Below, piece by piece: positions 7,901-63,630 of a stretch of 64,000 bases of DNA (its first letter is position 1; every line of letters starts with the position of its first letter). The DNA is from Ginglymostoma cirratum (Eukaryota), in contig JAHRHZ010000001.1 of NCBI GenBank assembly GCA_024137785.1, positions 3,947,075-4,011,074 on the forward strand, given 5' to 3'. Both the position numbers and the translations under genes were made by a program. The notes under the pieces were generated by a model. It ran no database searches, had not been told where the DNA came from, and saw only the letters and a list, made by a program, of their open reading frames with translations.

Positions 7901-10900
7901 ACTCAATACAATACCCTCTCGATACAGCTTCTTGGGACATGGCCCTCCCTCAGTGGCACCGAATGTGCCTGCCACCCTGGGTAAAGTACCAATAATCATG
8001 GGTTGTGTGAAGGCTCGGCCACCTCACAAGTCAATCTCCTGCCAAGCCTCCAAGCGAGATCGACACGGTTTTTTTTTCCTTACACCAGGACTGGGGATGC
8101 GACAGGTGTCGATGCCATCGGTGACCCTAGGATCAGTACAACCCAGAACCCGCGTCCAGCTGCCTGAATAATCGTGGGAGCCGACTGGCAAATTAGTCAA
8201 CACGGGACCTTTTCCAGATACAGGACGCGACAACACGAGTAAAGGGTACTCCTGGTCAAAATGCGAATGACCTCACGACAAGCTGCTAAACAAAGGTTTT
8301 CAAATTTAGTCAAATAGTCATTTATTTCCAATCAAACAATATTAAGCCATCAGATTTACATACAGTCTATATTCACAGTTAAATTGGAGTCTCCATTAAT
8401 ATTTTATATCAGAAATATAATGGCAATTCATATTACGTATGTGCAGAATACCATTAGATTTCATCAAGATTTAACCATTTGTGCCTCCCTAGATCATATT
8501 TTCACAAAAATAACCCAAAAATAGAAACATCATGCAACGTTCTGTGTGGGTATTATCCGGACGGTCCACCTGGCAGAATACGGTTAACACAATAAACACA
8601 ACAGTGGGCCGAGGTCTAGGTGCATAGCACTGAGCACAAACTGATGTCAGGAAGCATTTCCTCAAAGTGACCAATACCTGGAATGCTCTTCTCACTGAGA
8701 CGAGGCAAAATCTCTCCTGTTAGTCAAAAAGTCGTTAAACATTTACTGGGAAGTCTGAGGTGGTAGGAAAGGGGGACAGAAAGGACGGGGAACGAAAAGC
8801 AAAAAATTCCTAGGAACTTACTCTTAACTTGGTGCATCAAGACGAAATCCAGACTCACTTTTCTCACATCTAATTGCCAATCTTAATACAAACCATTCAT
8901 ACCAACTGGCAGTTAGGAAGACATCAAATTTTGTGCATCACTGATTGTGAAAGTGGGCATCTGTATGCAGATAGCATTTGAGACAAAGGTACGATTATGC
9001 AAATGAACTAAAATCACAGGTGAATAAATGGTGCTTTACCACACTGTCACAAGCAGCAAGGTAGATTAGACTAATCCTCAGCTGTCATCGGTATCCTGCC
9101 ACAGGATGAGATCCTGGCTCTTTTATAGAACATTTTAGTCAGGGAGCCACAAACCACTCGAAAAACAATGTCAACAAAGAATCTTGGAGCAAACTTCGGA
9201 CCTTCTGCTGGTCACAAACACCTTGCTAAAACAAAAACCAGGAAAATTGTCCGAGCAATTCACGTAAGGAATATAAGCGAAGTCATTCCAGAAGCTACAG
9301 ATACAAAGTCCACTGCAGAACTTAAGAGGGGAAAAAGATTCTTGCTTGGGAAACAAGCATTAAGAGGCCAGGGTTAAATGCAGTCTAAGCTGTCACCGCT
9401 GATCAAATTCCAGTGCAGTCTTGATGGATCTATTCCAATTTCCATACAATATTTATACACAAATAAGTAGAAGTCGTCATGCAGGTAAAGCAGGCTATGG
9501 GTTATATTTATGAAGTTATGACCCATGTGCATTTAAGCACAGATATCTAAGTTCTTTTTAAGTTTGATAAATTCTTTTACTTTTTTTGAAACTTGGAATG
9601 TCAGCACCCACCTGCCAGCTAACACGAGAAGAAAGATTCTTCACAATCAAGCGGTAGTCAGTACGAACAGGAGGTCCATATCTGAAATTTCAAGAAAGGT
9701 AACTTACTGAAAGCAACAAAATATCAATATCACAATAGCTGCATCACATATATTGCTATATATGCAACTCCAACACTAAAGATACAAGAACAGAAGGTTG
9801 AGATTTAACACTAATCCATGTCGAATCCATTACCTCCACTGGAGGGATACACCGGCCTTGGGCTCTGCCTTACGGCTCTGGATTGGGGCAATAAGGACCA
9901 AAGTTTGCACTCAGGCATTGCTGCCAAGGCTTTCATTTAATGATCCATTGTTATATGCTCTTAAGATAGTGGCAAGCTTTTACAACCACACTCCATGGTC
10001 AATTGCCTGATGGGCCAAAGTCTTGGAGCTTTCTGCCTAACAACAAAGAACAGTAACTATAATTCCAAGCCAGAACGATGAGACACTTGGGAGCTGTGGT
10101 TCAAAAGAGAAGGGAAAACAGACTAGGAAAATAAATTGACAGTTAATATAAAAAGGGAATCCAAATGCCTTCTATAGACATTTAAATAATAACAGAGCAG
10201 CAAAAGGGGTGCGGCTGAAAAGGGACCAAATATAGCTTGAAAGAGTAGGTGGTGACTAAACAAACAAGATTCTGAGGGGTAGAGATAAAAGGTACTGCAG
10301 ATGCTGGAGAATCTGAGATAACAAGCGTGGGGCTGGATGAACACAGCAGGTCAAGCAGCATCATAGGAGCAGGAAAACTTCACGTTTCGGGCCTAGACCC
10401 TTCATCAGAAATTTCTGATGAAGGGTCTNNNNNNNNNNNNNNNNNNNNNNNNNNNNNNNNNNNNNNNNNNNNNNNNNNNNNNNNNNNNNNNNNNNNNNNN
10501 NNNNNNNNNNNNNNNNNNNNNNNNNNNNNNNNNNNNNNNNNNNNNNNNNNNNNNNNNNNNNNNNNNNNNNNNNNNNNNNNNNNNNNNNNNNNNNNNNNNN
10601 NNNNNNNNNNNNNNNNNNNNNNNNNNNNNNNNNNNNNNNNNNNNNNNNNNNNNNNNNNNNNNNNNNNNNNNNNNNNNNNNNNNNNNNNNNNNNNNNNNNN
10701 NNNNNNNNNNNNNNNNNNNNNNNNNNNNNNNNNNNNNNNNNNNNNNNNNNNNNNNNNNNNNNNNNNNNNNNNNNNNNNNNNNNNNNNNNNNNNNNNNNNN
10801 NNNNNNNNNNNNNNNNNNNNNNNNNNNNCAGATGCTGCCAGACCTGCTGAGCTTTTCCAGCAACTTTGTTTTTGTTCCTGATTTACAGCATCCGCAGTTC

Positions 10901-13900
10901 TTTTGGTTTTTATTTAACCTAGGTGGGCTTTTAGGTCAAATGGTTACTGAAGCAGAAGAATGGCTGATTGAGGCTAATGCAGTTGATGTGCTGCACTCTG
11001 ATTTCCAAAAGGCATCTGAAGAGGTGCCACATTGATAAGCTTGACAGTAAAGTTGAAATCTACAGAATAAAAGGGACGGGGCAGCATAAGTAAAGTTGGC
11101 TAAGTGACAGGAAACACTAGTGATGTTGCTTTCTTAGACTGGAGAAAAGTATGAGTGGGATTTCACAAGGTTAGTATCATATCCATCACATTTCTTCACC
11201 TATATTAAATGACCTAGACTTGGATGCACAAAGGACAATTTCAATACCACAGATGATACACAACTAAGTACTGCAAACTGCAAGAACAGTGACAAACTCA
11301 GAGGATACAGGCTGGTACCAAGACCAGTCATATGGCAGTGAAATATACTGTGCAGAATTTCTAAGTGATTTATTTTGGTTAAATGCAGGACAGGCATTAT
11401 AACAGGGAGGAACAGAACGTGGGGGTACACTTGCGCAATTAACAATCTTGGCAGACAGTTGGGAAAATGCTTGTAAAAGCAGCATACACAAAATCCTGGA
11501 TTTTATAACTAGAGGTTGCTGGAGATCCCGAGGGACAGGATGTGTGTGCATTTGGAAAGGAAGGACTGATTAGTCAACATGGCTGTATGTGTGGGAAATC
11601 ATGAAGTAACAATCAAGTTCGTGAGACAAAAAAAATTCAAAGAGAGCCAAGGGCAGAGCAGTGGACATGATCTATATGGACTTCAGTAAGGATCAGTGCT
11701 GGGTCCACTGCTTTTCATCATTTATACAAAATGATTTTGATGTGAACACAGAAGGTATGGTTAGTAAGTTTACAGATGACACCAAAATTGGAGGTGTGGA
11801 CAGCAAAGGTGGTTACCTCAGAGTACAACGGGATCTTGATCAGATGGACCAATGGGCTGAAGAGCAGTAGATGGAGTTTAATTTAGATAAAGTTGAGGTG
11901 CTGCACTTTGAAGAGTTAAATCAGGGCAGGACTTATACACTTCTTGTAAGATCTTGGCGAGTGTTGCTAAAAGAGAGACCTTGGAGTGCAGGTTACTAGT
12001 TCCTTGAAAGTGGAGTCACAGGTAGTTCGGATATTGAAGGCGACATTTGGTTTGCTTGCCTTTATTGATCACTGCAATGAGTATAGGAGTTGGGAGGACA
12101 TGTTGCATGATTGAGATCCTATGGAAATTGATCTACAGGTATAAAATCCAGCCCAGTCACAGCAAGGCAGTGAAAACCTCACTAAGTCCATTTGTGAAGA
12201 GTTGCCAGTTTGAATAAACTGAGTTCTGAAGTCAAGGGATGGGGAAAGTGACAAATCAACTTCCAACTGATAACACCCAAAACGTTGCAAGCACTCAGCA
12301 GAGCAGGAAACACTTGTGGGGACAGGCAAACAGAGCAGCATGTCTCAGGCCTTTACATGTGTTACAAAATGAGCAGCACGCAGAGGAAGGAAAAAGTAGT
12401 CAGCAGGCAACGATGATAAGACAATGCAAGAGGCAACGATGATAAGACAATNNNNNNNNNNAGGCAACGATGATAAGACAATGCAAGAGGCAACGATGAT
12501 AAGACAATGCAAGAGGCAACGATGATAAGACAATGCAAGAGGCAACGATGATAAGACCAGCACAGAACTGAAAATGGGTTTGCAGGGTAGGTATAGATCA
12601 TTAAAGCAGAACGCTACAGCGTGTGGGAAGCTCGGAAAAGAATGTGAAGGACATGCTGTGTGCATGTAACTGTGCATATTTACGTCATGGTGGGTTTCTT
12701 TGATGTGGGGGTAGAAGAGAAACAGGAGGAGGAGGTGTGTGTGGGAGAGACGGGTAGGGAGCGACAGAGGAAAGCCAGACGCTGGGGTGAGGTTCTCCTT
12801 GCTGCTTGTACATTGATATGATCTAGTTTTGTGGCAAGGGTACCTAACATTTTAGTACAATCTGCAAATTTGGAGACTTCAGTGTTCCCAACATTTTTGG
12901 TGTGTAATAACTTCTTTTTGCATTGAAGCCATTTTTATCCTAACCTAGTTTTCCCCAATCCACCCCATTTACCTTAGTCCACTGCTTCGCTCACTTCTGG
13001 GGCGGTAATAGTTAAACCTTCCACCAAACCTGCCCCCTCCTCTTCGAGGTGGTGCTTTTGCAAGCTCCACGGTGATCCTAGAGAATTTTAAGCAAGTCAG
13101 AAATCAAAAAACTACACACAAAATTAGTTGCAGACAAAACAATCTTTAAATATTACAGGACATGGGCTTTTGCAAACAGAACCTTTAAATCAAACCAAAC
13201 ACTCCAGAAAGCAGAGTCCACATATTTAGAAGATGCTGTCGCAAAAGCCTTCACGTGCTGCTGCGCACCATAACATCATTGTGCATCAGTGGTGGAGGGA
13301 ACGACTATCCAAAACAGCGCATGGGTTATCAAGCAGGCTGCATTTCTTCAATGATGCCAAGCTTCAACAATTGCAGCTGTATGCCTTCATGCAGGTGGAA
13401 TCTATTTCAACACACTCCTGACTTGTACATTTAAACAGTTGTCAGATTTGGAGAGTCAGGAAGTGTCAAATACTGCACAACTTCCAGCTTTAACTTGTTC
13501 ATGCAGCCACAGTATTTATATGGCTGGTTTGAGTGAGTTTCTTGGCAATGGCAATACTCAGAAGTTGCCAATGGGGGGGGGGGGGGGGGGTTGGCAGCTG
13601 TAATGCCACTGAATGTCATGGGGAGAAGGTTAGATTCACCCTTATTTGAGATATCCATTGTTCCACACAATTTTATTTACCACTTATCAAGCTAAGACTT
13701 AATGTTCATGCCTGGCTTCAAAATCAACATTAAATGCCTCAGTACCCGCTAGCAGTGAATACCACTGAACATTTTGCAATCAGCGAACACTTCTGATCTT
13801 TTGATGGAGAGGTGGTCAACGATGAAGCAGCTAAAATGGATAACCCAAGAAAGTACCCCAAGGAACTCCTCTGGTGCAATCCTGGACTGAAAAAAATGAT

Positions 13901-16900
13901 TGACTAACGAGCATGTTACTTTGCATTAGACATGACTAATTGGCAGAATGTTATCTCCTAGGTTCCCACTGACATCAGTTTTCTTCAGATCCTTGACATT
14001 ACACTTGGTGAAATGCTACCTTTATGTCAAGGACTGTCACTCCCATGTCAAGTTCAGTTCTTCTGTCCATGCTTGGACCAAGGTCGTAAGGAGTTGAGTG
14101 GGTCTGATGGAACAAAAACTGAGCAGTGAGCAGCTTACTGCTGAGTAAAAGTCACTTGATAAGCACTGTCAACAACCCTTCCATCACTGTGCTAATGATC
14201 AGATTGGATCAACAGGGTTGCAACTGGTTGCTTGAATTTGTCCTGCTGCCTTTAGATGACCAAACATACTGGGGTAATTTTCCACATTGCCCAGTAAATG
14301 CCAGTGCTGTATTGTACTAGAATGGTTTGGCTAAGGACAAAGCTAGTTCTGGAATTCATGTCTTCAGTACTTTTACCAGAGGGTTAGCACAGAACATAGC
14401 TGGTGTAGTATTCAATCTCATCATTTGTTTCTTGATATTGTGGCTGAAGATAGCCACATATGCTTCAGGCTTTTCTTTTGCATGTGTTAAATAAAATTTT
14501 TTTGCATCAGATACAACTGTTACAAGGATGCCTACGAGCTAGATATGTCCTCGTGCATTTTGGAGATTATTACATTTCTAAAGTGAGGGGCCCCTTGAAG
14601 GAGCTCAGTTATTGAAGTCAGCAAGTCCACAAACTATTAATATTAGAAAATCCCAACCCTACCCTAATGAATTAGTCTAATCCAGCCTGGGGAAACAGAC
14701 CCTCTACTAGAAAAAGCAACTGCATGGAGACAGAATTCAGAATTGGTCTTAGCAATAGAGCTGAATGATGAAAAATACTCTGCCCAGCCACAGCCTCTAA
14801 GTTGGAATAACAAAATGATGAATATCACCAGTGGAAAAGTAATTCAAAAGTCAGACACTACAGATCAAGAAAACTAAAATATGATCTGAACTAGGATAAC
14901 AGATTGGCTTTTGCAGCTTTAGTATAGAAACACTCTATAACTTTTGATTGAAAACGCATGCTTTGCAGACTTGTTCACCTATATAGCAATTTCACAAACT
15001 GCAAGTTTTAAAATTTTAATAAAACAGGATTCACATCTCTCTCCATTGATTTTAGAATTAGACCACTGTGCAAAGTATACTTGCACTTTCTTTGTCAATT
15101 CAGGTTTAATGACATACCACATACATGGATCTTTTTGTACTAATGAAATCAACCCCCAATATTTAATCATTAACCTTGATCTACAAACATGAATAACGAA
15201 ATTGAAGAGTTTGCTGAAATTTACTACAGCTCCAAAGGACCTCAAAGGCTGATGGAATATGCACAAGATTCAACCTCATCTTCCTCCACATCTTCCCACG
15301 TGCATTGACTATTCTGTTGAAAAACCTACCTCTCCCGGAAGAGCTCTTTCCCATTCAGCTCATAAACTGCATCATCAGCATCCCGAGCATCATCAAATTC
15401 CTAAACAAGGGTATCAAGAATCCAGTTTATTCAAAAGTTAAACAAATTTATGAACAGCTTCACAAAATGGTGGCATGCATACCAGTCTCAACCCAGAGGA
15501 TAGGTCCTCAAATTCTACTGGGACCAAATAAAAAGGACTTCAGAAGCTGGATTGTTATGAAAATAACCAGTTCAGCAACATCCTTCATGAGGGAATACAC
15601 AGACTTGTCTTTTTTGACCTCAAATCATCGTTTTTGAATAGCAACATTATAGGCAATACATACAAATTTACAAGCAACATTCACAGAGAACAAGTCAAAA
15701 AAAATTGTTAATTCAGGGAACAGCAACAGACACTGCATCAAAATTACTTAATTTTACTGCAGAAAACAGTAGTAACCCTTGGTCATTGTTTCTCTAGTGC
15801 ATGACTAACCAAATGAGTACCAGTCCTTTTTTGCCACTGAAATTAAAGCCACTGCACCACATGGGGAAAGAAAGAGTCTCACCAGGAACATGCAGGAAAA
15901 ACCAAGATGCATTTCTGAAGAAGGGTCTAGGCCCGAAACATCAAGCTTTCCTGCTCCTATGATGCTGCTTGGCCTGCTGTGTTCATCCAGCTCCACACCT
16001 TGTTATCTTACGTGCAGGTGCAATCTGGTTTTATATTATAGACTTAGTGGGTAACATTAGAGGAAAATCCAATTATATATTCTAATTAAGACTGTGCATC
16101 ACAACAAAGGCAGTCAGGACTAGTCATTAAAATATCAGTCAAGCTTAAAAGAAAATTTACTGAAAGGAAAGATGGAGACGACTAATTTACATATTGTAGC
16201 AGACTCTCCATTAGGCATGACAAATCAAACTGTTGGTGCTAGGTCTGTACCCAGATTAGGAAGTGAAATCCACTCAAGTGATTTACAAATCATTGAATGT
16301 AGATGCTTGTTGCCATCATGGACTCAAAACAAATATCTTACATTAATGGTCATGACAAACAAGAAATATAATCTCGAATGTTCAGAACATCTACATTCCT
16401 GCATCACACTGACATTATGGGAACCTTGAATTCTCCAAACCGTTAACAAGGTTAAAAATAGAAAATCGAAGTGTTCAAAGCTCAGACAAGCTTGACAAAA
16501 TTTTCTTTTTAACATTGTTACTGGTACCTGGGAGACCACAGCAAGTTTACATTAGTTAACTTGCACTGGTTGTCTGGGGGAGATAGGTGGATCTTTCTGA
16601 ACCACTGCAGGCACCATGATTATGCACAGACAGTGCGGTTACAGACAGAAATCCAAAGTGATGACCCAATGTTAGCCATCCAGATAAAACTCAATTCACA
16701 GAAGCTACGATGCCCCAGCACTTCCCTGGCCTGCACAGTGTCCTCGGATGGGATAGGTCAGAGAGTTGGACAAGATTTCCAAGTGAACTGCTGCCATGCA
16801 TCCTAAAGATTTGAAAGTGCTGCACTAGCAAGAAAGATCATCCATCCTGATGATGTGTGCTGTTTATATTCTTGCAGTGATCCAGGTAATGCACTATTCA

Positions 16901-19465
16901 TCACACTGCTAACACAGATCTGGTAGATAGTGGGTAAACTCTATAACACTGAATACCTATTATTTTATATCTTTAAGGCTTTGTTACTGATAACAGTTGG
17001 CCCAGTCCATCATCTGGGCCATCCAATCCCCCAGATCTGGGGCAGCTCTCTAATGGTGCATTACCTAAAGATTATACAGGCATGGTCCAAGCCCTCAACA
17101 GCTGAAGTCTGGATGCCAGGTTTCTCTGGCCATATATACTTCATTAATTAGAAGGGTGTGAGCTGAACTTAACGCTCAAAAGGGAAGCATGAACACAGGA
17201 AGAACAGCCATTAAAACCCTGAACTCTCTCAAGTGTACCCATCTCTGGACTGCAGCGGTTCAAAAACGCAGCTCACTGCCATCACCTCAAGAACAATTAG
17301 GAAGGGGCAACAAACACTGGATTAGTGTCACCAACATCCCAGGGAAGAATAAACAAACAGCCTCATTCGCAACCTTATGCAGGATGGCTAGCTGCATCCC
17401 TGCAATGATCCTGAAACTAGTTGCCAGGATATAACTACAAATCTCTGACATCACTCTAGCTATGAAAGGTTTATTTTGTTTGGCTGCAAGGGTTCCATGG
17501 CATCACATTTACTTCAATGTTATTCCAGCTCTTGCCTCTTGCACTTCAATAGCAGGATCCAAACTGTGACGGGGTCCAGCAGAGGGAGGAACAGATGTCA
17601 CTATTAATGATTATGAACAGGCAAATATGGAAGCAACTGATTGTTTTAACTCCACATGCCATGCCAGACTTCAATGTCATCAGGTAGATGTCAAAGTCAT
17701 AACTCTACAGGAACCGTAGAGTAGATAGCTACAGGTGGGATGTCATAATGGCCTAGTTTTTGATGTGGCTAAACCACAACCCATAGGTCAAGGGTCACAT
17801 CTTCCTACTACACATATCCCTTGGGTGGTGATTTAGCCGCAAAGACTGCCACAGTGTGTTGAGTTAAAACAATCAATTGCTGCCATATTTGCCAGTTCAC
17901 AATCATTAACTTCTCAGGCTTAGAATACTCTTCACACAAAGGACAAGACATCTCAGAAGCATTGGAAAACTGATGCACTCGGATCCCGCCCCAAAACTAG
18001 TATCAGACTGCATAGTGTAGCATCTAGCTAAATGGACATCAAACAGCTAAACACACTGCTTATTCAGCCTCAAATTCTACAAAATGGAATTTGATAATAT
18101 TAGACCAAAGTCCATAATAAAACCTTATGGATAAGGACAGTTCATGATACTTCAGTAGCAATTCAATGATGGTGAAATGCTTTATAAACACGACGGGGTT
18201 ATGGTAGGTAGTGTATATAGAGGTGAAAGTTTTCTGCCCCTTTTCCATCAAATATCAACATGTTGTATCTGTTACAAATGCAACCATGAAACATGGTTGA
18301 CTAAGCAGTGGAACGGTGCCAACTAAAACAAAATCCTAAATACCTACATGATTGTTCCTGGACAGACTGTTTACTTTGTACATTTGGGATGAGAGTTGGC
18401 ACCAAATGTCAACAGAGGAGGATCTGGTTGCAAAATGAAATTTATCAGAACATTCTAAGGCTTATGCCGTCAGTTCTCATAGTGGATACAATACATCAAC
18501 TTTAGTGGAATTCACAACAGGTGACGTCATGCAAATACACCAATCCTGAGGAAGCATCTCATTTCAGTTACTCAGGAAATAGATCAACAAGCACATTCTG
18601 GACACAAAAGACCTGCCTGGTAAGATCAGTTTGTATGCAATAGTTCTGCCATGCAAAACTCACCTGTAACACGAATGCAGCAGGTGACCTCCCCATGAAA
18701 TTCAATTCACAGAAACTACCACTACCTACCTGAACCAGCCAAACAAATGCAGTAGGCACTGAAGCCATTCTTGTCCAGCAGCAATAAGGTGGTCAATTTT
18801 TTGAGAACAAAAAGGTTAAAACATCATCTCCATCACAATGAAATTTATTAGGTAACTAAAACCTCCCACTCACCTGTGAAATCACCTTGATATAGATTTA
18901 CGAGATTAAAAAGCTACTTTTGAACAACATTTTAATATGATAGAAGCGTTTACTTCAGCAGTTTCCTAATATGAATACAGACAGTCAGGCTGTCACCAAG
19001 CATCATTACCCAAATCAGAATAAACATTAAAACAATATGAAATCGGAGGCAAGAAGGTGTAGAGCTTGATAAACACAGTAGGCCAGGCAGCACAGGAGCA
19101 GGAAAGCTGACGTTTAGGGTCTGGGCTCTTCTTCAGAAATAATTGGAGGCTATGTCCATGCAAGTGCAGCAAGATGTTTCACAAATATGGGCATAGCTTT
19201 CTATTTCAAGTTCTGACATTACAGGTAACAATTCTGAAAAGTAATCCTACATTTTATTAAAAAACTATTTTACATCATCGAATCACAGGATAAAACCCAG
19301 GAATATTAACAGGAATCTGCAATGTGGCAGAATACTCACCACAAACCCAAAGCCTCTCTTTAGGTCAATTTCACGAATACGTCCATAACCTTTGAAGAAC
19401 TTTTCCACATCACGTTCTCTCACCTGAGGGCTCAGGCGACCAATGAACACACGGCAACCGTTCAT
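4674..19465 (-). CDS. SRSF5: SRSF5-type serine/arginine-rich splicing factor, whole CDS span: join of 19340-19465, 15330-15400, 12973-13077, 9612-9681, 6854-6927, 5766-5876, 4674-4971 (855 nt, 284 aa)
   Basis: All introns are GT-AG with compatible phases. Protein has RRM1 ([11 protein letters not shown]...[24 protein letters not shown]), a G/R linker, pseudo-RRM2 with SWQDLKD, and an RS domain. Exon sizes 126/71/105/70/74/111 fit the SRSF5 layout. It may be a paralogue (SRSF5-like) rather than the 1:1 orthologue. Confidence 0.93.
5766..5876 (-). CDS. SRSF5: SRSF5-like exon 7
   Basis: atcctgcag|[36 protein letters not shown](R)|gtaatc, 111 nt. Confidence 0.95.
6854..6927 (-). CDS. SRSF5: SRSF5-like exon 6
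   Basis: tgtttgtag|[24 protein letters not shown](G)|gtaaga, 74 nt. Confidence 0.95.
8084..8282 (-). other. Candidate poison (PTC) exon or alternative 3' splice site in SRSF5-like intron 5
   Basis: Branch-like TGACTAAA, cctttgtttagcag tandem acceptor, in-frame LVVRSFAF then TGA (8256-8258), candidate donor GGT|gtaagg at 8083; CpG retained. Confidence 0.55.
9612..9681 (-). CDS. SRSF5: SRSF5-like exon 5
   Basis: tttcag|[23 protein letters not shown]|gtgggt, 70 nt. Confidence 0.95.
10281..10428. mobile_element. Palindromic Penelope-derived short element running into a gap
   Basis: Near-identical to the left arm at 31142; perfect palindrome AGACCCTTCATCAGAAATTTCTGATGAAGGGTCT. Confidence 0.88.
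10429..10828. other. Assembly gap (400 N)
   Basis: N run. Confidence 1.
10829..10915 (-). mobile_element. Penelope-derived short element arm (second subfamily)
   Basis: Reverse complement of 52381-52460. Confidence 0.75.
10930..12110 (+). mobile_element. CR1 LINE fragments (two nested ages)
   Basis: [43 protein letters not shown]. Confidence 0.82.
12405..12557 (+). repeat. 26-bp minisatellite AGGCAACGATGATAAGACAATGCAAG, about 6 copies, with a 10-N gap inside
   Basis: Identical tandem units visible directly. Confidence 0.95.
12973..13077 (-). CDS. SRSF5: SRSF5-like exon 4
   Basis: ttctctag|[34 protein letters not shown](R)|gtaaat, 105 nt. Confidence 0.92.
13435..14460 (-). mobile_element. 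Decayed LINE (L2/CR1 group) fragment containing a G18 run
   Basis: RT-like remnant (cttgacataaaggtagcatttcaccaagtg); no intact ORF. Confidence 0.5.
15330..15400 (-). CDS. SRSF5: SRSF5-like exon 3
   Basis: cttgtttag|[23 protein letters not shown](R)|gtaggt, 71 nt. Confidence 0.95.
15911..16008 (+). mobile_element. Single-arm Penelope-derived short element with hammerhead core
   Basis: CTGAAGAAGGGTCTAGGCCCGAAACATC followed by the family tail. Confidence 0.82.
19051..19140 (-). mobile_element. Single-arm Penelope-derived short element
   Basis: Homologous to 21575-21668; flanked by AATCGGAGGC and AATTGGAGGC (19041, 19141). Confidence 0.8.
19340..19465 (-). CDS. SRSF5: SRSF5-like coding exon 1 (exon 2; acceptor before 19489)
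   Basis: [42 protein letters not shown]; acceptor ctctttcag; donor GTG|gtgagt. Confidence 0.95.
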
Positions 19466-21186
19466 TTTGTAATGACACTTTTATGCAGCCTGAAAGAGTA
19501 TTGAAATAACGTTGCAGTGTTAAAACAAGAATTTCACTATAAAAGCTTACCAGTTACCATAAAGAAAGGCAGTATATAACCACTAGCCAAAAAAGACAAT
19601 AGTTCATTACAACTTATCTGCATATCATGTAATCAACTCATGGTCAGGTTGGCAACTTGCCCAATTGCAATTACGCTCTACTTAAGAGAACGTACAGAAA
19701 AACACAACTACTCCAACCTTAGTGTATTAAGGAGAAATTCATACAAGCAGACCCATGTGTTGTATAATAATTAAATTTAGCTTCCCAATCCCATTTTCTA
19801 ATTTTCAGACAAGTTGTTAACCTAAAGCAATTTTCTCCAATAAATTAGAGAGAAAACAACAAAACTGCATATTCATACAAAGAGGATCTTAAAAGAAGTT
19901 GGAAACAATTTGCAACTGCTCTGGATGACAGATTACACATGAGCAAAACGATGAAAGCTCAGTTAGTTATATAGCGTAAGCACTAACATATGTTCCAGGC
20001 ATTATAAGCAAATGGTTCAGTGATTTGAATTATAATCAAGGATCAATATTTCCTTGTTGCAGCTTTCAAACCAGAAATCAATTTCAACATTTGACCTGAT
20101 AAAATGCACACTTTAGTTAAGCCAAGTTTAACTCCAATTGCAAAAATCTAGTGTGATTAAGAGATAGCCTCATAGCATATTAACCTTTAGACTATATATT
20201 TTAAAAATGCTTGCGGTTGGTAGATTTTAAAATGGGACCTGCATATTGACTTTGCAACCTTTTGCAAAGTGCGCTCTGTTGTACCTTGGCGTCCATCTTG
20301 CCTCAAGACATTAGAAACGACATTAATTGACAACGCCAGCTTTTCCAGCCTTCCCAAAGCAAGGAAAGTATGATTTAAATTAAAAAAACCCTTCAAAAAG
20401 AATTTATAGACATTGCTTCAAAAATCTGAAGTGGAAAATTCGGTAATTCTAACCACTACCAACATGTGCGTTTCTCCTTATACGCTACATAAAAACATTT
20501 TCTACTGCCCCCGTTAATCTTTTGTGATTATCTAACATTTGTATCATCTTGTTATTATCTCTCCAAATAACAGAAACAAATGATCACTATTTAACTCAAT
20601 AGTAAAACCTCACTTGGTAACAAAAAACGTCTCGGTAAAGCTGGACAATATTTTTCCCAGCTGGAAACGGTTTAAAAGATGTTTTGTTCACAGAAAATCG
20701 CGCACCAAATAAATCAGGTTTACTGAAAAGGCAACGACGCAATCAGTCACCAACAAGTGCGATGTCGTTTTTCAAAGAAAAACAAGGCAGCGGCGCAATC
20801 CGAATACAAACCGGATTTGAAAAATTCGACACCGTTGCTGCCCCGATTAATCAAAAGCCCTTAAGATAAATATTTCACATTTAGTCAAGTTCTCGGTCGG
20901 GGCTAATGGGGGCGCGGGGTGGGAAGAAGAGTAAAGACCATGTAGGAGAGCTGCCCGTGCCGACTGAGAAGGTTCCAGAAAGGCAAACAGTTAAATGGTG
21001 AAACAGTGCTGCCAAAGGCGAACAGCCTACCCACCCCTCCCCCACCGTGCGGCCTACCTCCAGCCGCCGCCTCTCGGCACCAACTCGAGCAACAGCGACG
21101 CCCCGGAGCCGCACCCCGACACGACGCGGACCCCGCCAAAACCCAACCACACGAAAAAAAAACCCGCCGCCCCTCACTCTGCTCAC

Positions 21187-21320
21187 TCGCTGCCTTTCCG
21201 GGTGGTTCTCGGTGTGGCTTTGACCCCGCTCAGACTCTCAGCGCTCGATGATTTTTCTCTCTCGCTCTTCTACACCGTCACCGTGGCCGCCGTCGCTCCT
21301 TCTCCTCCTTCAGTCACTTG
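21187..21320 (-). other. SRSF5: SRSF5-like non-coding exon 1 (5' end approximate)
   Basis: Lies in a CpG-rich island; donor GCGA|gtgagc at 21186; promoter motifs immediately upstream. Confidence 0.65.
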
Positions 21321-21545: not shown

Positions 21546-21574
21546 CTTTTCACCTAACAACATGAGAAATAGGG

Positions 21575-23648
21575 ACAACAAGGTGTAGAGCTGGATGAAC
21601 ACAGCAGGCCAAGCAGCATCAGAGGAGCAGGAAGGCTGACGTTTCGGGCCTAGATCCTTCTTCAGAAATGGGAGAGGGGAAAGGGGTTCTGAAATAAATA
21701 GGGAGAGAGGGGGAGGCAGATAGAAGATGGATAGAGGAGAAGGTAGGTGGAGAGGAGACAGACTGGTCAAAGAGGCAGGAAAGGTGAGGAGTTAGGGAGG
21801 AGATAGGTCAGTCCAGGGAGGATGGACAGGTCAAGGGGGCGGGATGAGGTTAGTAGGTAGGAGATGGGGTGTGGCTTGAGGTGGGAGGAAGGACAGGCTA
21901 GGGAGGCGGGAATGAGCTGGGCTGGTTTTGGGATGTGGTAGGGGAAGGGGAGATTTTGAAGCCTGTGAAATCCACAATCCCCAAGCCTCCGCTTGGTTTT
22001 GCCGATGTAGAGGAGGCCACAACGGGAACAGCAGATGCAGTATACCACGTTAGCAGATATGCAGGTGAACTTGATGTGGAAAGTCTTCTTGGGGCCTGGG
22101 ATGGGTGAGGGGGAAGGTGTAGGGGCAAGTGTAGCACTTCCTGCGGTTGCAGGGAAAAGTGCCGGGTGTTGTGGGGCTGGAGGGGAGTGTGGAGCAGACA
22201 AGGGAGTCACGGAGAGAGTGGTCCCTCCGGAAAGCAGATAAGGGTGGGGAGGGAAAAATGTCTTTGGTGGTGGGGTCGGATTGCAGGTGGTGGAAGTGAG
22301 GATGAGGAGGATTCTGTTTTGGTTGTTATTGCAGGAAGGGGGTGTGAGGGATGCGTTGTGGGAAATGCGGGAGACACGGTCAAGGGTGTTCTCGACCACT
22401 GAGGGGGGGATGTTGCAGTCCTTGAAAAACGAGAACATCTGAGATGTACGGGAGTGGAATGCCTCATCCTGGGAGCAGATGCAACGGAGGCTAAGGAGTT
22501 GGGGATAGGGGATGGCATTTTTGCAGGAAGGTGGGTGGGAGGAAGTGTATTCTAGGTAGCTGTGGGAGTCGGTGGGCTTGAAATGGATATCGGTTGTCAG
22601 AGATGGAAACAGTGAGGTCCAGGAAGGAGAGAGAGGTATTAGAACTGGTCCAGGTGAACTTAAGGTTGGGGTAGAAGGTGTTGGTGAAGTGGGTGAACTG
22701 TTTGAGCTCCTCATTGGAGCATGAGGCGGCGCCGATACATTTGTCAATGTAACGGAGGAAGAGGTGGGGTTTAGGGCCAGTGTAGGTACGGAAGAGGGAT
22801 TGTTCCACGTAACCTACAAAGAGGCATAGCGTGGGCCCATGCTGGTACCTTTGGCCACCCCACTAGTCCGTAGGAAGTGGGAGGAATTGAAAGAGAAGTT
22901 GTTGAGGGTGAGGATTAGTTCAGCTAAGCAGATGAGGGTGTCAGTAGAGGGGGACTGGTCGGGCCTGCGGGACAGGAAGAAGCGGAGGGCCTTTTGGCCA
23001 TCTGTATGGGGAATGCAGGTGTATAGGGACTGGACGTCCATGGTAAAGATGAGGTATTGGGGACCGGGGAATTGGAAGTTCTGGAGGAGGTGGATGGCGT
23101 GGGTGGTGTCACGGACGTAGGTAGAGAGTTCCTGGACCAAGGGGGAGAAAATGGATTCGAGATAGGTGGAGATAAGTTCGGTGGGGCAGGAGCAGGCGGA
23201 GACAATGCGTCTACCAGGGCATTCAGGTTTGTGGATTTTGAGAAGGAGATAGAAGCGGGTGGTGCGGGGTTGGGGAACGATGAGTTTGGAGGCTGTGGGT
23301 GGGAGGTCACCTGAGGTGATGAGGTTGTGGATGGTTTGGGAGATGATGGTTTGGTGGTCAGGGGTGGGGTCATGATCAAGGGGGCGGTAGGAGGAGGTGT
23401 CGGAGAGTTGGCGTCTGGCCTCGGCGATGTGGAGGTCAGTGCGCCATACTACAACTGCGCCTCCCTTGTCCGCAGGTTTTATGGTGAGGTTGGGATTGGA
23501 ACGGAGGGAGTGGAGTGCTGCACGTTCTGCAGTGGAGAGGTTGAGGTGATTGATGTCTCGATGGCAGTTGGAGATGAAGAGGTCGAGGGAGGGTAGGAGG
23601 CCTTGGGGTGGTGTCCAGGAGGAGGGGGTGTGTTGGAGGCAGGAGAAG
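21575..23648 (-). mobile_element. Penelope-like retroelement (Neptune-type), 5'-truncated and frameshifted: RT, GIY-YIG endonuclease and 3' end with hammerhead motif
   Basis: IKPADKGGAVVVW, FYLLLKIHK, FTMDVQSLYTCIPH, GVAKGTSMGP, LRYIDK (catalytic YIDD altered), FLDL, KPTDSHSYLEYTSSHP, NVVYCICCSRCGLLYIGKT across ORFs 22814-23686, 22491-22808 and 21767-22747. Confidence 0.92.
21638..21665 (-). ncRNA. Minimal type-I hammerhead ribozyme core in the Penelope 3' end
   Basis: CTGAAGA-AGGATCTAGGCCC-GAAAC-GTC on the minus strand. Confidence 0.65.
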
Positions 23649-23850
23649 GTTTCCTCCGGGTGCTCCAGTTTCCTCCCACAGTCCAAAGATGTGCAGGTTA
23701 GGGTGGATTGGCCATGGGAAATTGCCCATAGGGATGTGTAGATTAGGTGGGTTATAGGGGGATGGGTCTGGGTGGGATGCTGTGAGGTTCGGTGTGGACT
23801 TGTTGGGCCGAAGGGCCTGTTTCCACACTGTAGAGATTTTACGATTCTAG
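23649..23850 (+). mobile_element. V-SINE (HE1-like) 3' half abutting the Penelope copy
   Basis: GTTTCCTCCGGGTGCTCCAGTTTCCTCCCACAGTCCAAAGATGTGCAGG and tail. Confidence 0.8.
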
Positions 23851-23926
23851 GATTGCTGCTTTTTCCCCATGCTTTCTGACCCCTTTAGCCTCACGCTGGG
23901 CTATTAATGCAGAGACCAAAATAACA

Positions 23927-24122
23927 AAGATAGTTAGGAACTGGAGAATCTGAGATAACAAGGTATAGAGCTGGATGAACACAGCAGGCCAGGCAGCATC
24001 AAAGGAGCAGGAATGCTGACGTTTCGGTTCGAGACAAAGCAGGGTCTTGACCCGAAATGTCAGCTTTCCTGCTCCTCTGATGCTGCTTGGCCTGCTGTGT
24101 TCATCCAGCTCTACACCTTGTT
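23927..24122. mobile_element. Palindromic Penelope-derived short element; 14-bp TSD
   Basis: Inverted arms homologous to 21575-21650; AGACCAAAATAACA at 23913-23926 and 24123-24136. Confidence 0.88.
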
Positions 24123-24258: not shown

Positions 24259-24351
24259 TCTGAAGAAGGATCTAGGCCTGAAGCGTCAGCTTTCCTGCTC
24301 CTCTGATGCTGCTTGTCTTGCTGTGTTCATCCAGCTCTACACCTTGTTATC
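24259..24351 (+). mobile_element. Single-arm Penelope-derived short element with degenerate hammerhead core
   Basis: CTGAAGAAGGATCTAGGCCTGAAGCGTC; TCTGGTT duplicated at 24252 and 24352; interrupts a SINE. Confidence 0.82.
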
Positions 24352-29123: not shown

Positions 29124-29239
29124 ATACCAAGGTATAGTCCAACAGGTCTATTTAGGCTGCTCCTTCGCCAGGTCACTTCACTTGGTGTTGTGTGATTTCT
29201 GACTTTGTCTACCCCAATCCTATTCAGCATCTCCACAAC
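29124..29239. mobile_element. Short element of a third, probably Penelope-derived family; 12-bp TSD
   Basis: TTGGTTCAGACT at 29112 and 29240; related to 63525-63630. Confidence 0.65.
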
Positions 29240-30990: not shown

Positions 30991-31141
30991 GCTTCAAATT
31001 GTCAACTATACAAATGTTTCTCATTAAAAGAAAGCAAAAATACAACAGATGCCGGAGATCTGAAAGAATAATTAAAAAATGCTGGAGAGACGTAACTGGT
31101 CTGGCAGCGTCAGTGGAGACAGAACACAGTAAACGTTTGAG

Positions 31142-31381
31142 AGATAAAAGGTACTGCAGATGCTGGAGAATCCGAGATAACAAGCTGTGGGGCTGGATGA
31201 ACACAGCAGGTCAAGCAGCATCATAGGACCAGGAAAACTTGACGTTTTGGGCCTAGACCCTTCATCAGAAAAAATGATGAAGGGTTTTTTCTGATGAAGG
31301 GTTTAGGCCCGAAACGTCAAGTTTTCCTGCTCCTATGATGCTGCCTGACCTGCTGTGTTCATCCAGCCCCACGCTTGTTGT
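31142..31381. mobile_element. Palindromic Penelope-derived short element with a hammerhead core in each arm; 17-bp TSD
   Basis: About 95-bp inverted arms; plus-strand core CTGATGA-AGGGTTTAGGCCC-GAAAC-GTC at 31291-31318; CACAGTAAACGTTTGAG at 31125-31141 and 31382-31398. Confidence 0.9.
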
Positions 31382-31900: not shown

Positions 31901-31901
31901 G

Positions 31902-45600: not shown

Positions 45601-46594
45601 AGTTGCGGGAAAGTAGATGTTAGAGACAAACCACATCTTCCTTGCATGTGATGGAGGCTCCTCCCGCACCAGTCAAATATTTGTTGACACTCGCTGTCTA
45701 GCGTTAGAGGTGAAGCACGCCCACTCCAACCAGTTTCTTGAGAACTACAGTGCAGGAATGTCTGTCATCTTCTGAAGTGGAGGGGAGTTAAGATTTTGTT
45801 GAAATTGCTTCTGATAGGAATTGTTTGCATACAGTCTTCCAAAGGGGAGGCAAGGCTAGATGAGATTCGAACTGCTTTAAAACTTTGTACAGAGTTAAAA
45901 TCGGACCCAGTGCTCAGTGTCTGGATCCACAGAAGTTGCACAAAATTAATGTTGTTTTTTCGTGCTGAAAACGTTTAGGTTGTTGTTTTACACATGTATC
46001 AATTTCCAGAGATTAAAATAAAATGTTTCTGAAATAGCAATTTCTCAGTTTTCCTGCTTGAACTTTATTTTGGAATAAGAGACTTTAGCTTATGTACTGG
46101 ACATGCAGGGATCATTAAAACTCTGCTTTCTCTCCACAAATGCTGCCAAACATGCTGAATTTCTCCAACAATCTTTGTATTTGTTTCAGATTTCCAGCAT
46201 CCGCAGATCTTATGTTTAGAATAAAACAAATGTTGAATTTTGTATCCATGAATTAACCTTGTATAGAAAATAGTGTTGCTGTCTCTATGGGTTTGACTAA
46301 CTCCACAAACTAATCATTCAGACACATTGTATAACATTGTCTGAACCACCCCAGTGTGTTACAGCGTCATGCTTCACTCTCGGCCTTCAGAAATACATCG
46401 TGTACTACCATAAATAAACAAAAGAGACAGACAGAATTGAAAATTAACATCTCGTCCTAAGAACATCATTCTGTACAACTTCAAAATCCTATTGACTTAA
46501 ATGGGATTTCTGAAGCGGGATGTGAAATCAAAACATTGTGAATTGGGGAAGGGCGTGTTTCCACCTGAAATATGATTGACACTGCTTTCATTGG

Positions 46595-48424: not shown

Positions 48425-51400
48425 ATTGAATGATTTATTTCTTATTGCCACATGTACCGAGGTACAGTGTAAAGTGTTGGTTTGCATGCTATACACACAG
48501 ATTGTACCATACTAACTGCATCAGGGTAGCCGAACAGAGCGCAGAGCGAAGTGTTACAACCACAGAGAAAGTGCAGAGAGAGAGACCAGAATTAACATTT
48601 GAGAGGTCCATTGAAAAGTCTGATAACAGTGGAAAGAAGCTGTTCTTGAATCTATTCATACAAGTGTTCAAACGTTTTTGTCTTCTGCCTGATGGAATAT
48701 AGTATAACTGGGGTGGGAGGAGTCTTTGATTATGTAGATTGCTTTCCTGAGGCAACAGGAAGTACAGATGGAGTCAATGGATGGAAGGCTGGTTTGCGTG
48801 ATGGACTGGGCTGTGTTCACGACACTGTAGTTTCTTGCAGTCTTGGGAAGACTAGTTGCCATGCCCTGTGTGGTGCATCCAGATAGATGCACCGTAGAAA
48901 GCATCCTATAAAAAATTGGTATGAATCCTTGTGGACATGCCGAATTTCCTTAGCCAACTGAGGATGTAGAGACGTTGTGCTTTCATGACCGCCTTTCTGA
49001 TGTGAGTGGACCAGGACAAATCATCATACCCAGGAACTTGACACTCTCGACTATCTCCAGCTCAGCACCATTGATGCAGACAAGAGCATGTCTTCCACTT
49101 TGCTTCTTGAAGTCAATGACTAGTTCCTTTAATTTGCTGATGCTGGAGGAGAGACAGTTGACTTTACACGATGTTGCTAACCATTCAATCTCTTTCCTGT
49201 ATTCTGAGATCCAACCTACAACAACAGTGTCAACAAACTTGTAAATGGAACAGAAACAGAAATTGCTGGAATAGCTCAGTAGCCCTGGCTTCGATATCTG
49301 CTTACGTTTCTGATTTCCGGCATCCACAGTTCTTTTTTGTTTTTAACTTGTAAATGTTGTTGGAGTGGAATTTGGCCACACAGTCATGAGTGTATAAGGA
49401 GTATAGTAGGGGGCTGAGTATGCAGCCTTGCAGGGCACCAGTATTAAGGATTATGGTGGAGAAAATGTTGTCGTCTTTTCTTACTGATTGAGGTCTCTGG
49501 GTCAGCAAATCGAGGACCCAGTTGCAGAGCTAGGAGTTGATACCCAGGTCTTGGAGTTTAGAGATGAGTTTGTTTGGAATTATGGTATTGAAGGCAGACT
49601 GTAGTCAATAAGTAGGAACCTGATCTACAGTGTACATCTCACCCCAATGCAGAAGTGAAGTGTGCACTTGTTATCCAAATGTTCCAGGGATGAGTGTTGC
49701 GCCAGGAAGATTGTGTCTGCTGTCGAACTATTATGAATTGCAAAGGGTTAAGGCAATTTGGTAGGCTGGAATTGATGTGAGCCATGACTAACCTCTCGAA
49801 GCACTTCATAATTATGAGGCGGTCAGAGCCACCGGGCAGTAGCCATTGAGGCACACTCCATAATTTTTCTTTGGCATCGGAATGATGATGGTCCCCTTGA
49901 AGCAGGAGTGGACTTCAGATTGTAATAAGGAGAGGTTAAAGATGTCAGCGAATATGCATGCCAGTTGGTCCACACAAAATCTGAGTGCACGGCTGGGGAC
50001 TCCACGTGGGCCGGTTACTTTCCAAGGATTCACTCACAAGAAGGCTGATCTAATGCCTGTGGCAGTGACCTTGGGTACAGGTGTATCTGAGGCTGTTAGG
50101 ATAGGGTGACATTGTTCAGTGATCTTCTGTTCACCGTGAGCATAGAATACATTGAGCTCATCGGATAGGAATGTACTGTTGCCCACGATTCTATTTAACT
50201 CCGCTTCGTGGCCTGTTATGTCGTGTGAACCTTGCCACAAATGACAGGTGAACCTGTAGATGGTCTGGGTCTCAAGCTTAGTTTGGTATTGCCTCTTGGC
50301 GTGTCTGATGGCCTTACCAAGGTCATACCTGGATTTCCTGTATACGTCAGGGTTGCCCGACTTGTACACCTTCACTCTGGACTGCAGTAAAGAGTGGATC
50401 TCCCAGTTCATCCGTGGTTTCTACTTGGGGAACATTTGGATTAACTTATTAAAGAAATCTTCTACACACTAACTAGTGAAGTCTGTGACGGTAGTGGTGT
50501 GCTTGTTTAAATTGACAGCTGAGGTCTTGATTATGGACCAGTCCACCAACTGTAAGCAATCACATAGAAGCCCTTCCATTGCTCAGAACATCACAGCACT
50601 ACTTTCCGTACCGGTTCCTCATGCTTCAATTTCTGCTTGTAAGCAGGGACGAGAAGCACAGCATTGTGATCTGATTTTCCAAGGGATGGTGCAGTAGACA
50701 TCTTTGGTTGTATACCAATGTTCAAGGAAGGATGTTTGGACCTCTGGTGGGGCTGGAAACGTGTTGATGGTATTTTGGTAACACATTCTTGAGGTTGGCC
50801 TGGTTGAAGTCACAGGCTACGATGTGCAAGGCCTCGGGGTATTCTGTCTCAAGACTGTTTGTAGTGTTGAATACTTCGTCAAGTGCACTCTTCACTTCCG
50901 CATTGGGGTGAGACGTAGACTGTAGTTAGGAAAGTGGAAGTGAATTCACATGACAAGTGGTAGAGACAGCACTTTAGTGAAAGGTATTCTTGGTCCAGGG
51001 AGCAGTAACTTGTTAGGGTTGCCATAGCTGAGCACCAGGAGGTGTTGATTAGGAAGCAGACCCCACTGCCCCTTGCCTTACCCGAGGACGCCAAGTGGTC
51101 CATTTGGTGAATTGAGAAACCTTCAGGTTGTAGGGCACAGTCTGATGTAGAAGGAGCGAGCAGTGTCTCTATAGACAGAGTGCACAGCAGTCTCTTAACT
51201 CCCTTTGGAAGGTGAGTCTAGCTTTAAGTTCATCATTTTGTTCTCAACGACTTGAACATTTACGAGGAGTATGCTGGGGTCGGGGGACTTGAAACCTAAA
51301 TAATTTCAGTTTCACCTGAAGTCCAGCCAACGTCACCAATGTTTCCTCAGTAGGTGGCTGCTCCAAGAGGTAAGTGTGTGCTCCCAACAGGGTCCTGGGC

Positions 51401-51619: not shown

Positions 51620-53150
51620 ATGCCATTGACCCGTGCGCACGAAGGACCCCGTGTTCATCATTACTTCCCAGGTCCTACTATTTATAGTATAATCCCTTGC
51701 ATTGCTAGTCCTGGCAGTTGCATAATCTCACACTTTTCTAAATTGATTTCCATTTGCCCACTAGTCTACGTGTCTGACTAGTTCGTTGATGATCTCCTGT
51801 AGTTTATGGCTGTCCTGACTATTTACCATCCTACCAATTTTTGTGTCATGTACAGACATCTTGATCATGTGCGCTACATTTGAGCCTGTATCATCAATGT
51901 ACATCACAAACAGCAAAGACCCTAGTAGCTAGTCCTATGCAACTCCACCAGAAATAGCCTCCAGTTGCAGAAATATCTCTGAACTATAATTCTCTACTTA
52001 CTCCCCCTCAGCCAATTTTGGGTCAGTTGGGCCACTTTGTCTTCTTAGTTTCTTAACCATCTGCCAAGAGTGACTTAGATTTTAGCAAGGCTTTCGATTA
52101 TGTAGACCACATCAAATGCATGAGTCTCATCAATACTCCTGGTTACCTCTCAAAAAATAATTGATCATATTTGTCAAACACTATCTTCGTTTAACAAATC
52201 CATGCCAATTCTCCATGATTAATCCGTGAATTTCCAAGTGCAGCAATATTCTGTCCCTCAGAACTATTTCTGATGCAAAAGTAGGGAGGCTATAATTCAG
52301 TTGTACAGTGCATTAATGAGATCACATCTAGTGTACCGTGCACAATATTAGTTTCTTTATTCAAGGAAGGAAGTAAATATAAACCAAAAGAACTATGGAT
52401 GCTGTAAATCAGGAACAAAAACAAAGTTGCTGGAAAAGCTCAGCAGGTCTGGCAGCATCCGTGAAAGAGAAAACCGTTCCGAGGAAGGGTCACCAGACCT
52501 GAAACGTTAACTCTGTTTTCTCCTACTCTTCTAAATTCCAGCAGACGCGTACTTAGCCCATATAATCTTTCCTATGAAAACCCACCCGTTCTAAGTATTA
52601 ATTCAGTAAACTACTTCCAACATATTTACATCCTTGAAGGAGAAAACAGTTCCGAGGAAGGGTCACCAGGCCTGAAACATTAACTCTGTTTTCTCCTTCA
52701 AGGATGTAAATATGTTGGAAGCAGTTTACTGGACTAATACTTAGAATGGGTGGGTTTTCTTAGGAAAGATTATACGGGCTAAGTACGTGTCTGCTGGAAT
52801 TTAGAAGAGTAGGAGTTGACTTAATTTAAACATTCAAGACTCTGGGTAGTTGCGGAAAGGATGTTTCCTGTTGTGGGAGAATCTACTTACTTCAAAACAA
52901 AAATCTCAAATCTATGATGAATGTAAGGATGATTATTTTCCCACAAACATTGTAAATCTTTGAACTTTTTCTCAAAAGATGGGGTTGCAGACTCTACTGT
53001 TTTTAAGCCAGAATTAAATGGGTTCTTGATGAGTAAAGTTGTGGAGGATAGGTGGGAATGTGGAGTAATCAGATCAGCCGTCATCTTATTGGATGGTGGA
53101 GCACGCTGTAGGGGCTCAATGCCCAATCCTGCTCTTAATTTGTATGTTTG
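51620..53150. mobile_element. CR1 fragments (minus 51620-52260; plus 52280-53150, which hosts the composite Penelope insert)
   Basis: Degenerate RT and 3'-end similarity to other CR1 copies. Confidence 0.65.
52381..52699 (+). mobile_element. Composite Penelope-derived insertion: arm, hammerhead-like core, inverted copy of target DNA, second core
   Basis: Cores at 52479 and 52652; 52520-52651 is the inverted complement of 52682-52815; AAGGAAGTAAATAT and AAGGATGTAAATAT at 52367 and 52700. Confidence 0.85.
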
Positions 53151-63005: not shown

Positions 63006-63086
63006 AGATAACAAACATGGGGCTGGATGAACACAGCAGGTCAAGCAGGAAAACTTGACGTTTCGGGCCTAAACCCTTCATCAGAA
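63006..63086 (-). mobile_element. Single-arm Penelope-derived short element with intact hammerhead core
   Basis: Minus-strand CTGATGA-AGGGTTTAGGCCC-GAAAC-GTC at 63057-63084; ATGATTGG duplicated at 62998 and 63087. Confidence 0.85.
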
Positions 63087-63524
63087 ATGATTGGCTTGTT
63101 CTATACAATGTCTCCTCATTGGCAGTCCCCTCATGTCAGAAAACCGTCCAGTGAATCTTTGTTGTACCCTCTGTAAAAACAAGGATATCTTTTCTTAAAT
63201 AAAGAGACCAAATGATCAGGATTCACTTTGCTTACATGAGCAGAGTACAAAAGTATACCTTCCAGTTTGCAGATACAACACTCAGCAATTGATAGAGATG
63301 AAAGCAGCACCACTGACAGCAGCACCAGTGACGTGTAAGGTATTCTGCATCTGGACTACTGTGTACCGTACTGGTCATCTTATTTAAAGAAAGATTTCAT
63401 TGCTTTGGAGGCAGTTCAGAGAGGCTTTACTAGACTAATATCTGGATTGAGGGTGTTGTCTTATGAGGGAACGTTGGACAGCCTAAACTTTTATTTGCTG
63501 CAGTTTAAGAAAAGTCAGAAGTAA

Positions 63525-63630
63525 CATGACACCAGGTTATAGTCCACAGGTTCATTTGAAATCACTAGCTTTCAGAGCGCTGCTTAATCGTCAGGTGAAG
63601 TGAGGTCCAACACTGGCACCTCCACATCAT
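63525..63630 (-). mobile_element. Short element of the third family with a degenerate hammerhead-like core
   Basis: Minus-strand CTGACGA-TTAAGCAGCGCTCT-GAAAG-CTA; shares caccaggttatagtcc...ctccaca with 29124-29239; interrupts a CR1. Confidence 0.55.

Follow-up and report, generated by a model that had tools for sequence, protein, structure and literature searches.

The stretch analysed here is 64,000 nucleotides of the shark Ginglymostoma cirratum (the window; contig JAHRHZ010000001.1, positions 3,947,075 to 4,011,074). It holds one long, broken Penelope-like retrotransposon together with a series of short inserts, which are the last 40-135 bases of the pseudo-long terminal repeat (pLTR) of Neptune/Nematis-type Penelope-like elements and fall into three families. 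An insert consists of a single copy, or arm, or of two arms arranged head to head as an inverted pair, and an arm is tailed or tail-less depending on whether it carries the sequence that lies directly after the pLTR in full-length copies. The inserts are genuine and occur in very high numbers, and for the most part they carry a known layout to an extreme; what is new and testable is a sharp stop upstream of the cut site of a hammerhead ribozyme motif, and a counted rule that only one arm of a pair carries the tail. Positions within arms are numbered from the first C of the hammerhead core (+1), which places the predicted cut after +28. The window contains the following (pairs and the one complex insertion are given without a strand):

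10281..10428, minus: family 1 tailed arm (10281-10412) and the beginning of the opposite arm, ending at a gap of 400 N
10829..10917, plus: family 2 tailed arm, 3′ half only, its 5′ portion lost in the gap
15910..16008, plus: family 1 single tail-less arm starting at -4, with a mutated core; no duplication found
19051..19140, minus: family 1 single tail-less arm starting at -3; 10-bp duplication doubtful, with one mismatch
21574..23649, minus: Neptune/Nematis-type Penelope-like copy, 5′-truncated and frameshifted, with remnants of reverse transcriptase (RT) and GIY-YIG and a pLTR
23927..24122: family 1 inverted pair, one arm with a degenerate tail and one tail-less, both coreless; 14-bp duplication; within a repeat resembling a short interspersed nuclear element (SINE)
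24259..24351, plus: family 1 single tail-less arm starting at -2; 7-bp duplication; within a SINE-like repeat
29124..29239: family 3 inverted pair, the tail-less arm extending beyond the core and the tailed arm short; 12-bp duplication
31142..31381: family 1 inverted pair, tailed arm on the minus and tail-less arm on the plus strand, both stopping at -2; 17-bp duplication
38560..38760: older, decayed relative of family 1 in the form of an inverted pair; 15-bp duplication
40391..40432, minus: family 1 tailed arm, outer 42 bases, followed by a 400-N gap
46119..46217, plus: family 2 tailed single arm starting at +31
49248..49344: family 2 inverted pair, very short and coreless; 12-bp duplication
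52381..52699: family 2 complex insertion made up of a tailed arm, two pieces of the core region and the downstream flank copied in inverted orientation; 14-bp duplication, one mismatch
63006..63086, minus: family 1 single tail-less arm with an internal deletion and an intact core at 63084-63057; 8-bp duplication
63520..63637: decayed family 3 inverted pair; doubtful 10-bp duplication

All inserts reported in an initial annotation of the window were found again at roughly the same positions, and the arm at 46119-46217, absent from that annotation, was found in addition. The annotation had matched its main subfamily to the 3′ terminus of the Penelope-like copy, and this was borne out by a self-comparison of the window, which recovered family 1 at 10281, 15910, 19041, 21574, 23941/24041, 24257, 31140/31288, 40391 and 63005; direct reading of the remaining inserts gave two families beyond it. 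The 3′ end of the long copy is tail-less, with an intact core at 21665-21638. The inserts were also said to have their own target duplications, and among the 12 gap-free inserts tested these are clear, at 7-17 bp, in eight (23927, 24259, 29124, 31142, 38560, 49248, 52381 and 63006), doubtful in three (19051, 46137 and 63525) and absent in one (15911). Two inserts break a SINE-like repeat whose empty site occurs elsewhere in the window. The inserts at 10281, 10829 and 40391 adjoin 400-N gaps and their full form is thus hidden; those at 10281 and 10829 belong to different families. Single arms and head-to-head palindromes both occur as described, but the palindromes are not always centred on the ribozyme, since several pairs join downstream of it and are coreless. 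The arms of a palindrome are sense and antisense and form one long hairpin rather than a ribozyme dimer: positions 31140-31382, whose centre is an 11-base snap-back and whose intact core lies at 31291-31318, fold into a single hairpin with a predicted energy of -189 kcal/mol.

The hammerhead motif has the core, a helix II of at least four pairs, a palindromic helix III and a short helix I, as expected of a minimal type I hammerhead, and a descriptor of this form gave 29 hits in a sample of 718,930 bases against none in each of five shuffles. A scan of Rfam returned no hammerhead match up to an E value of 5, and only hairpin-driven microRNA matches below threshold. The initial annotation had reported the CTGA...GAAAC motif in many inserts; a strict scan of the window found the core intact only in the short arms at 31291 and 63084 and in the long copy at 21665. 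In the sample it is intact in 32 of 81 arms. The CpG of the core is lost as often as an adjacent one (68/107 vs 61/100), so the copies decay neutrally. Helix I has four pairs in the youngest haplotype of family 1, as it does in families 2 and 3, but two or three in the remaining family 1 haplotypes, so that the weak stem I previously ascribed to the main subfamily holds for these latter haplotypes and not for the youngest. On the minus strand at L260:868 there is a further minimal hammerhead whose helices I and II differ, representing a fourth family.

The parent was sought by searching the RT region against the shark's own genome (4.36 Gb), which gave long copies, and 11 loci were extended. 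Four of these (L122, L123, L126 and L131) have a pLTR, a 37-base tail, a long open reading frame (ORF) and a second pLTR, and translation of their natural frames gives RT, a CX4CxxC linker and a GIY-YIG domain with CCHH. By the motif definitions of PMC8557442, as given in the part of that paper available (a CX2-5CxxC linker plus CCHH), such a protein would be of the Neptune/Nematis type. As in endonuclease-containing Penelope-like elements, RT is followed by GIY-YIG in one ORF, the pLTRs have a tail at one end and the target duplication is variable in length. Among named proteins, the closest come from whale shark (85%) and zebra shark (80%). With Pfam, the 85% identical homolog gave GIY-YIG above the cut-off and RVT_1 below it (E 9e-5), the parent copy's own fragment gave a weak GIY-YIG match (E 0.036), and the broken frames of the window gave no hit. 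Long copies often have an inverted tailed arm at their 5′ end, of about 60 bases to more than 2 kb. Insert lengths form a continuum from 40 bases to more than 2 kb with a constant layout, and the mini-palindromes are its short end.

The sample consisted of the window and six genome blocks; thirteen blocks had been fetched, of which seven were all N and were dropped. Family 1 gave 139 arms, and after removal of seven below 77% identity there remained 132 arms in 96 insertions, a density of 134 insertions per Mb. If the six blocks are typical, this extrapolates to about half a million insertions genome-wide. Exact matching over the genome found 28,412 copies of a 37-base young haplotype holding the whole core, 14,275 of which also have the natural 13 upstream bases, and 12,216 copies of an older 25-base haplotype; the reversed-sequence controls gave none. 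Among 60 loci taken in genome order, 13/30 and 12/30 read through upstream. The same exact haplotypes are common to short and long copies. Family 2 gave 72 hits, 19 of them dropped for falling under 80% identity, and the 27 hits of family 3, some of them spurious, were inspected by eye and kept outside the counts. Eleven of the 12 gaps of exactly 400 N in the sample adjoin these arms, including those at window positions 10429-10828 and 40433-40832, so palindrome centres are under-resolved in the assembly.

The 5′ breakpoints of the arms are far from random. Once 18 gap-censored arms were excluded, 36 of the 81 family 1 breakpoints between -60 and +60 fell in the eight positions from -6 to +1, out of 121 (p 2e-21 against a uniform distribution), with -2 the commonest stop. 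Expressed otherwise, 36 of the 74 arms that reach +1 stop in this interval, at a rate per base of 0.061, compared with 0.005-0.014 downstream and 0.001-0.003 upstream. Family 2 has 16 of 43 breakpoints in the same interval (p 6e-9), and on inspection the boundary of family 3 looks alike. Paired arms, single arms and both arm types all show the stop (9, 14, 11 and 2 cases), and 16 of the 36 are in single arms. The interval corresponds to the 5′ strand of helix I. The stop is at the minimal hammerhead's 5′ edge, and the predicted cut lies about 30 bases further downstream. This result, which speaks against ordinary random 5′ truncation, upholds the earlier proposal of a boundary close to the ribozyme while moving it away from the cleavage site, where only 3/81 (family 1) and 3/43 (family 2) breakpoints lie within three bases. 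A possible family 1 splice acceptor, at about -27, was dismissed for want of a breakpoint peak at that point, and a C-rich tract was dismissed as a cause of stalling since family 2 lacks it.

All three families have a pyrimidine-A-pyrimidine sequence just ahead of the core, its A 3-6 bases before it, and pyrimidine-A-pyrimidine is the initiator consensus. Counted from this A, the ACGT of helix III in family 1 stands at about +28 to +31. The downstream promoter element of Drosophila Penelope, as described in the available part of PMC2377424, contains ACGT.

At the other end, family 1 arms finish at one of two places, +93 to +97 or +127 to +129, and single arms end at the same two points as paired ones. 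Thirty-two of the 36 family 1 pairs join a tailed to a tail-less arm, two more do so with an internally deleted tail, and in two one arm is unreadable; no pair has two tails, so that the one-tail rule holds in 34/36, and all seven family 2 pairs likewise have one tailed and one tail-less arm. The 3′ ends of paired arms point outward. Against a null of 145 random sites, target duplications of 10-18 bp were found at 27 of the 36 pairs and of 9-16 bp at 12 of 37 gap-free short single arms. In the 25 resolved pairs, a set that omits eight pairs with gaps and three with two long arms, the tailed arm reaches further 5′ in nine, the tail-less arm in seven, and the two are equal in nine; in family 2 the tail-less arm reaches further in 6/7. 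Centres and junctions differ in position or letters across the 36 pairs. Diagnostic sites match between the arms of a pair in 12/13, 15/16, 16/16 and 13/16 cases, against shuffled means of 7.0, 10.5, 10.0 and 7.6, which indicates that a single source was usually used; a minority, among them the pair at 31142 and that at locus L004, differ at two such sites.

Our results suggest that the inserts are probably abortive, 5′-truncated insertions made by the autonomous Neptune/Nematis-type element through two-ended priming. The element's protein would nick both strands of the target and reverse transcription would start from each near the front of the element RNA, at the tail end for one strand and about 35 bases further in for the other. 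Each cDNA would then end early or run off the RNA 5′ end at the foot of helix I, this end being either a transcription start at the initiator-like sequence or a point at which trimming is blocked, and joining of the two cDNA ends to one another would yield a palindrome, while joining of one to the target would yield a single arm. Priming from both strands accounts for the one-tail rule, the outward 3′ ends, the clean duplications of pairs and the fact that either arm can be the longer. The short copies are likely to be dead on arrival. Some short arms carry or match ORF-side bases of the full element. In the available text of PMC11167929, the Poseidon protein of the green anole lizard (PAc) is reported to nick and extend both target strands in vitro and to use two internal start sites that bracket the tail, 5′-shortened RNA gives a shorter product, and ribozyme cleavage is protein-assisted and dispensable. 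We would put forward more tentatively, as a serious candidate that falls somewhat short of probable, the specific proposal that the shark RNA starts at the foot of helix I, with the ribozyme marking its 5′ end, and that a protein dimer primes both strands. If so, hundreds of thousands of mini-palindromes would form a natural record of two-ended integration, which would also explain the inverted pLTR and one-sided tail of the whole class.

Several observations weigh against two-ended priming from an RNA that begins at helix I. The in vitro support comes from another clade, and the dimer is only predicted there (PMC11167929, available text); the RNA 5′ end at helix I is itself deduced from the breakpoints. 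Four contig runs gave neither a pile-up of ends nor a clear empty orthologous site, and contigs are incapable of showing RNA ends. Cap-derived G was counted at 205 vs 58 (also 413 vs 113), an excess much of which the AGG-rich opposite arm could supply; the control gave 57 vs 69, the background ratios were 1.0 and 1.26, and the three loci that were read did not decide the matter. The commonest stop, -2, misses the initiator-like A at -3 by one base, and extra T's at junctions are modest (21/70). ORF-side matches of at least five bases, of varied lengths, were seen at 9 of 50 short tailed ends (one of these being a longer inverted copy), and at none of 16 in an unbiased sample, and at least one match is also target sequence. 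Snap-back centres occur and are compatible with self-priming too.

Self-priming is the main rival for the formation of the second arm: one strand would fold back and be copied, and an endonuclease would resolve the hairpin with a stagger, leaving the tail on one arm. It has been proposed, on an antisense template, by Arkhipova et al. 2013 (PMC3846280, available text), and it fits the usual likeness of paired arms, the short snap-back pieces at centres such as 31272-31287 and the nine symmetric pairs among 25. We nevertheless regard it as unlikely, because either arm may reach further 5′ and a simple fold-back of one cDNA cannot produce such pairs; the longer tail-less arms of family 1 and family 2 are impossible by a fold-back that begins with the tailed strand. 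The pairs whose arms differ at two diagnostic sites and the sharing of both 3′ ends by single arms also argue against it. For the stop, the main rival keeps the inserts as abortive products and invokes no RNA end: at the boundary of helix I the enzyme would stall or the endonuclease would cut. This explanation is somewhat less doubtful than fold-back, yet still on the unlikely side. Family 1 has ATT at -3 to -1, the lizard enzyme favours 5′-ATT-3′ (PMC11167929, in the part available), about half of the arms read through, and at locus L236 an older palindrome received an insertion at its centre. Family 2, however, stops at the same offsets without ATT and with a different upstream sequence, and the stop follows copying of the structure rather than lying at its entry side.

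That the Penelope enzyme copies the short hammerhead RNAs of a separate non-autonomous family, retrozyme-like or SINE-like, is in our judgement improbable. The copy number is very high, the initiator-like sequence at the boundary could act as a promoter for short copies, and pLTR-derived non-autonomous retrozymes are described in vertebrates, including one cartilaginous fish (10.64898/2026.07.22.740005, available text). Yet a comparison of junctions, lengths and haplotypes, short of a full tree, gave neither a master sequence of the inserts' own nor a junction distinct from that of the autonomous element: the junctions of the 36 pairs vary, lengths run continuously into those of long copies, and identical exact haplotypes occur in both. 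The copies are also dispersed rather than tandem, their core CpG decays no more slowly than its neighbour, and short copies lack RNA beyond the tail, which the lizard element needs for activity (PMC11167929, in the same part). With a boundary off the cut and many inserts coreless, the ribozyme-bounded partner system that the initial annotation had offered as one reading gives way to its other, a stereotyped abortive-insertion product, which the non-random breakpoints at the ribozyme support. That self-cleavage defines the element's end is hardly credible. The motif conforms to the minimal type I hammerhead, and matching helices are found in several families, but breakpoints show no excess at the cut over neighbouring bins and arms continue straight through it, so this role is largely refuted and ribozyme cleavage does not set the boundary. 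We give equally little credence to the short palindromes or the stop being assembly artefacts or later deletions of long inverted copies. The gaps beside arms invite that suspicion, but gap-censored arms had been removed before counting, nearly half of the stops are in single arms and duplications are intact on both sides.

The overall layout of the inserts is standard for the class, in which an inverted 5′-truncated pLTR copy, a 30-40-bp tail at one end and a duplication occur together (PMC8557442, PMC3846280 and PMC2377424, in the passages available). The shark inserts share with canonical insertions the head-to-head layout, an optional tail of 35-37 bases on one arm, the variable duplication, the trouble they cause in assembly and the continuum up to full-length copies. 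They differ in that most are a bare minimum with no ORF and in that the one-tail rule is counted here, and the stop within eight bases is absent from the passages on canonical insertions in these three papers. PAc is similar in having two start points that bracket the tail downstream of a pLTR hammerhead whose cleavage is dispensable; in contrast, the shark element has the CX4CxxC linker, its ORF appears to begin after the tail whereas that of PAc begins inside the ribozyme, and our evidence is genomic whereas that for PAc is biochemical (PMC11167929, as above). The metazoan minimal type I hammerheads, in the available part of PMC4209133, have the same core, unpaired base before helix II, G-C first pair, palindromic two-base helix III and short helix I and are mostly single and dispersed; the same work of Cervera and de la Pena describes opposite-strand pairs 100-700 bp apart in a trematode. 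The shark's exact intact copies of one haplotype, at least 28,412, compare with about 9,000 Xenopus motifs there, the two having been counted by different methods.

The non-LTR retrozymes of 10.64898/2026.07.22.740005, in the text available, are likewise non-coding, pLTR-derived and hammerhead-bearing; theirs, however, are head-to-tail tandems with a ribozyme in each unit, whereas the shark inserts are single or head to head and often coreless. We found no tandem units and no breakpoint peak at the cut. The sole apparent tandem is the nested insertion at L236 (G000:C1:1768694-1771730), where two same-strand hammerheads lie 94 bases apart; such a chance head-to-tail dimer could be the seed of a retrozyme-like unit. 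In the twin priming of L1, two primings on one insertion leave part of it inverted. The shark primings differ in using fixed internal sites, and both arms cover the same sequence. A literature search, with most subscription papers, Repbase and Dfam outside its scope and with the reviews PMC6155905 and PMC6765202 available in part, found no report of shark Penelope mini-palindromes, of the helix I stop, of twin priming in the class or of a one-tail rule with either arm longer.

The published basic layout limits the surprise of these findings. Their value is that the inverted terminal repeats, one-sided tail and hammerhead role of Penelope-like elements become open to countable genomic tests: the one-tail rule, the freedom of either arm to be longer and the stop in two families speak for two-ended priming rather than fold-back and against a boundary set by cleavage. 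In this genome the inserts also give rise to large numbers of short hairpins and assembly gaps.

Some further features of the sequence deserve mention. Immediately ahead of the family 1 arm at 10281 stand a few bases like the start of a family 2 arm, and beyond the gap family 2 continues (10269-10917), so that one family has possibly inserted in the other's ribozyme. At some tailed ends (L017, L015) a stretch of 6-11 bases is common to the target and the continuation of the RNA, a hint that primer and template sometimes pair at the start site. At 52520-52815 a 300-bp palindrome consists of the inverted copy of the downstream flank captured within the family 2 insertion, which suggests a template switch onto target DNA. 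Locus L054 has a 400-N gap enclosed by a perfect palindrome (about 5945-6435), and this palindrome falls outside these families. A 220-codon open frame at 32497-33159, which gave no Pfam hit, looks like a host exon and presumably resembles CCDC97. Just upstream of the long Penelope-like copy there is a GC-rich, promoter-like region (20700-21560).

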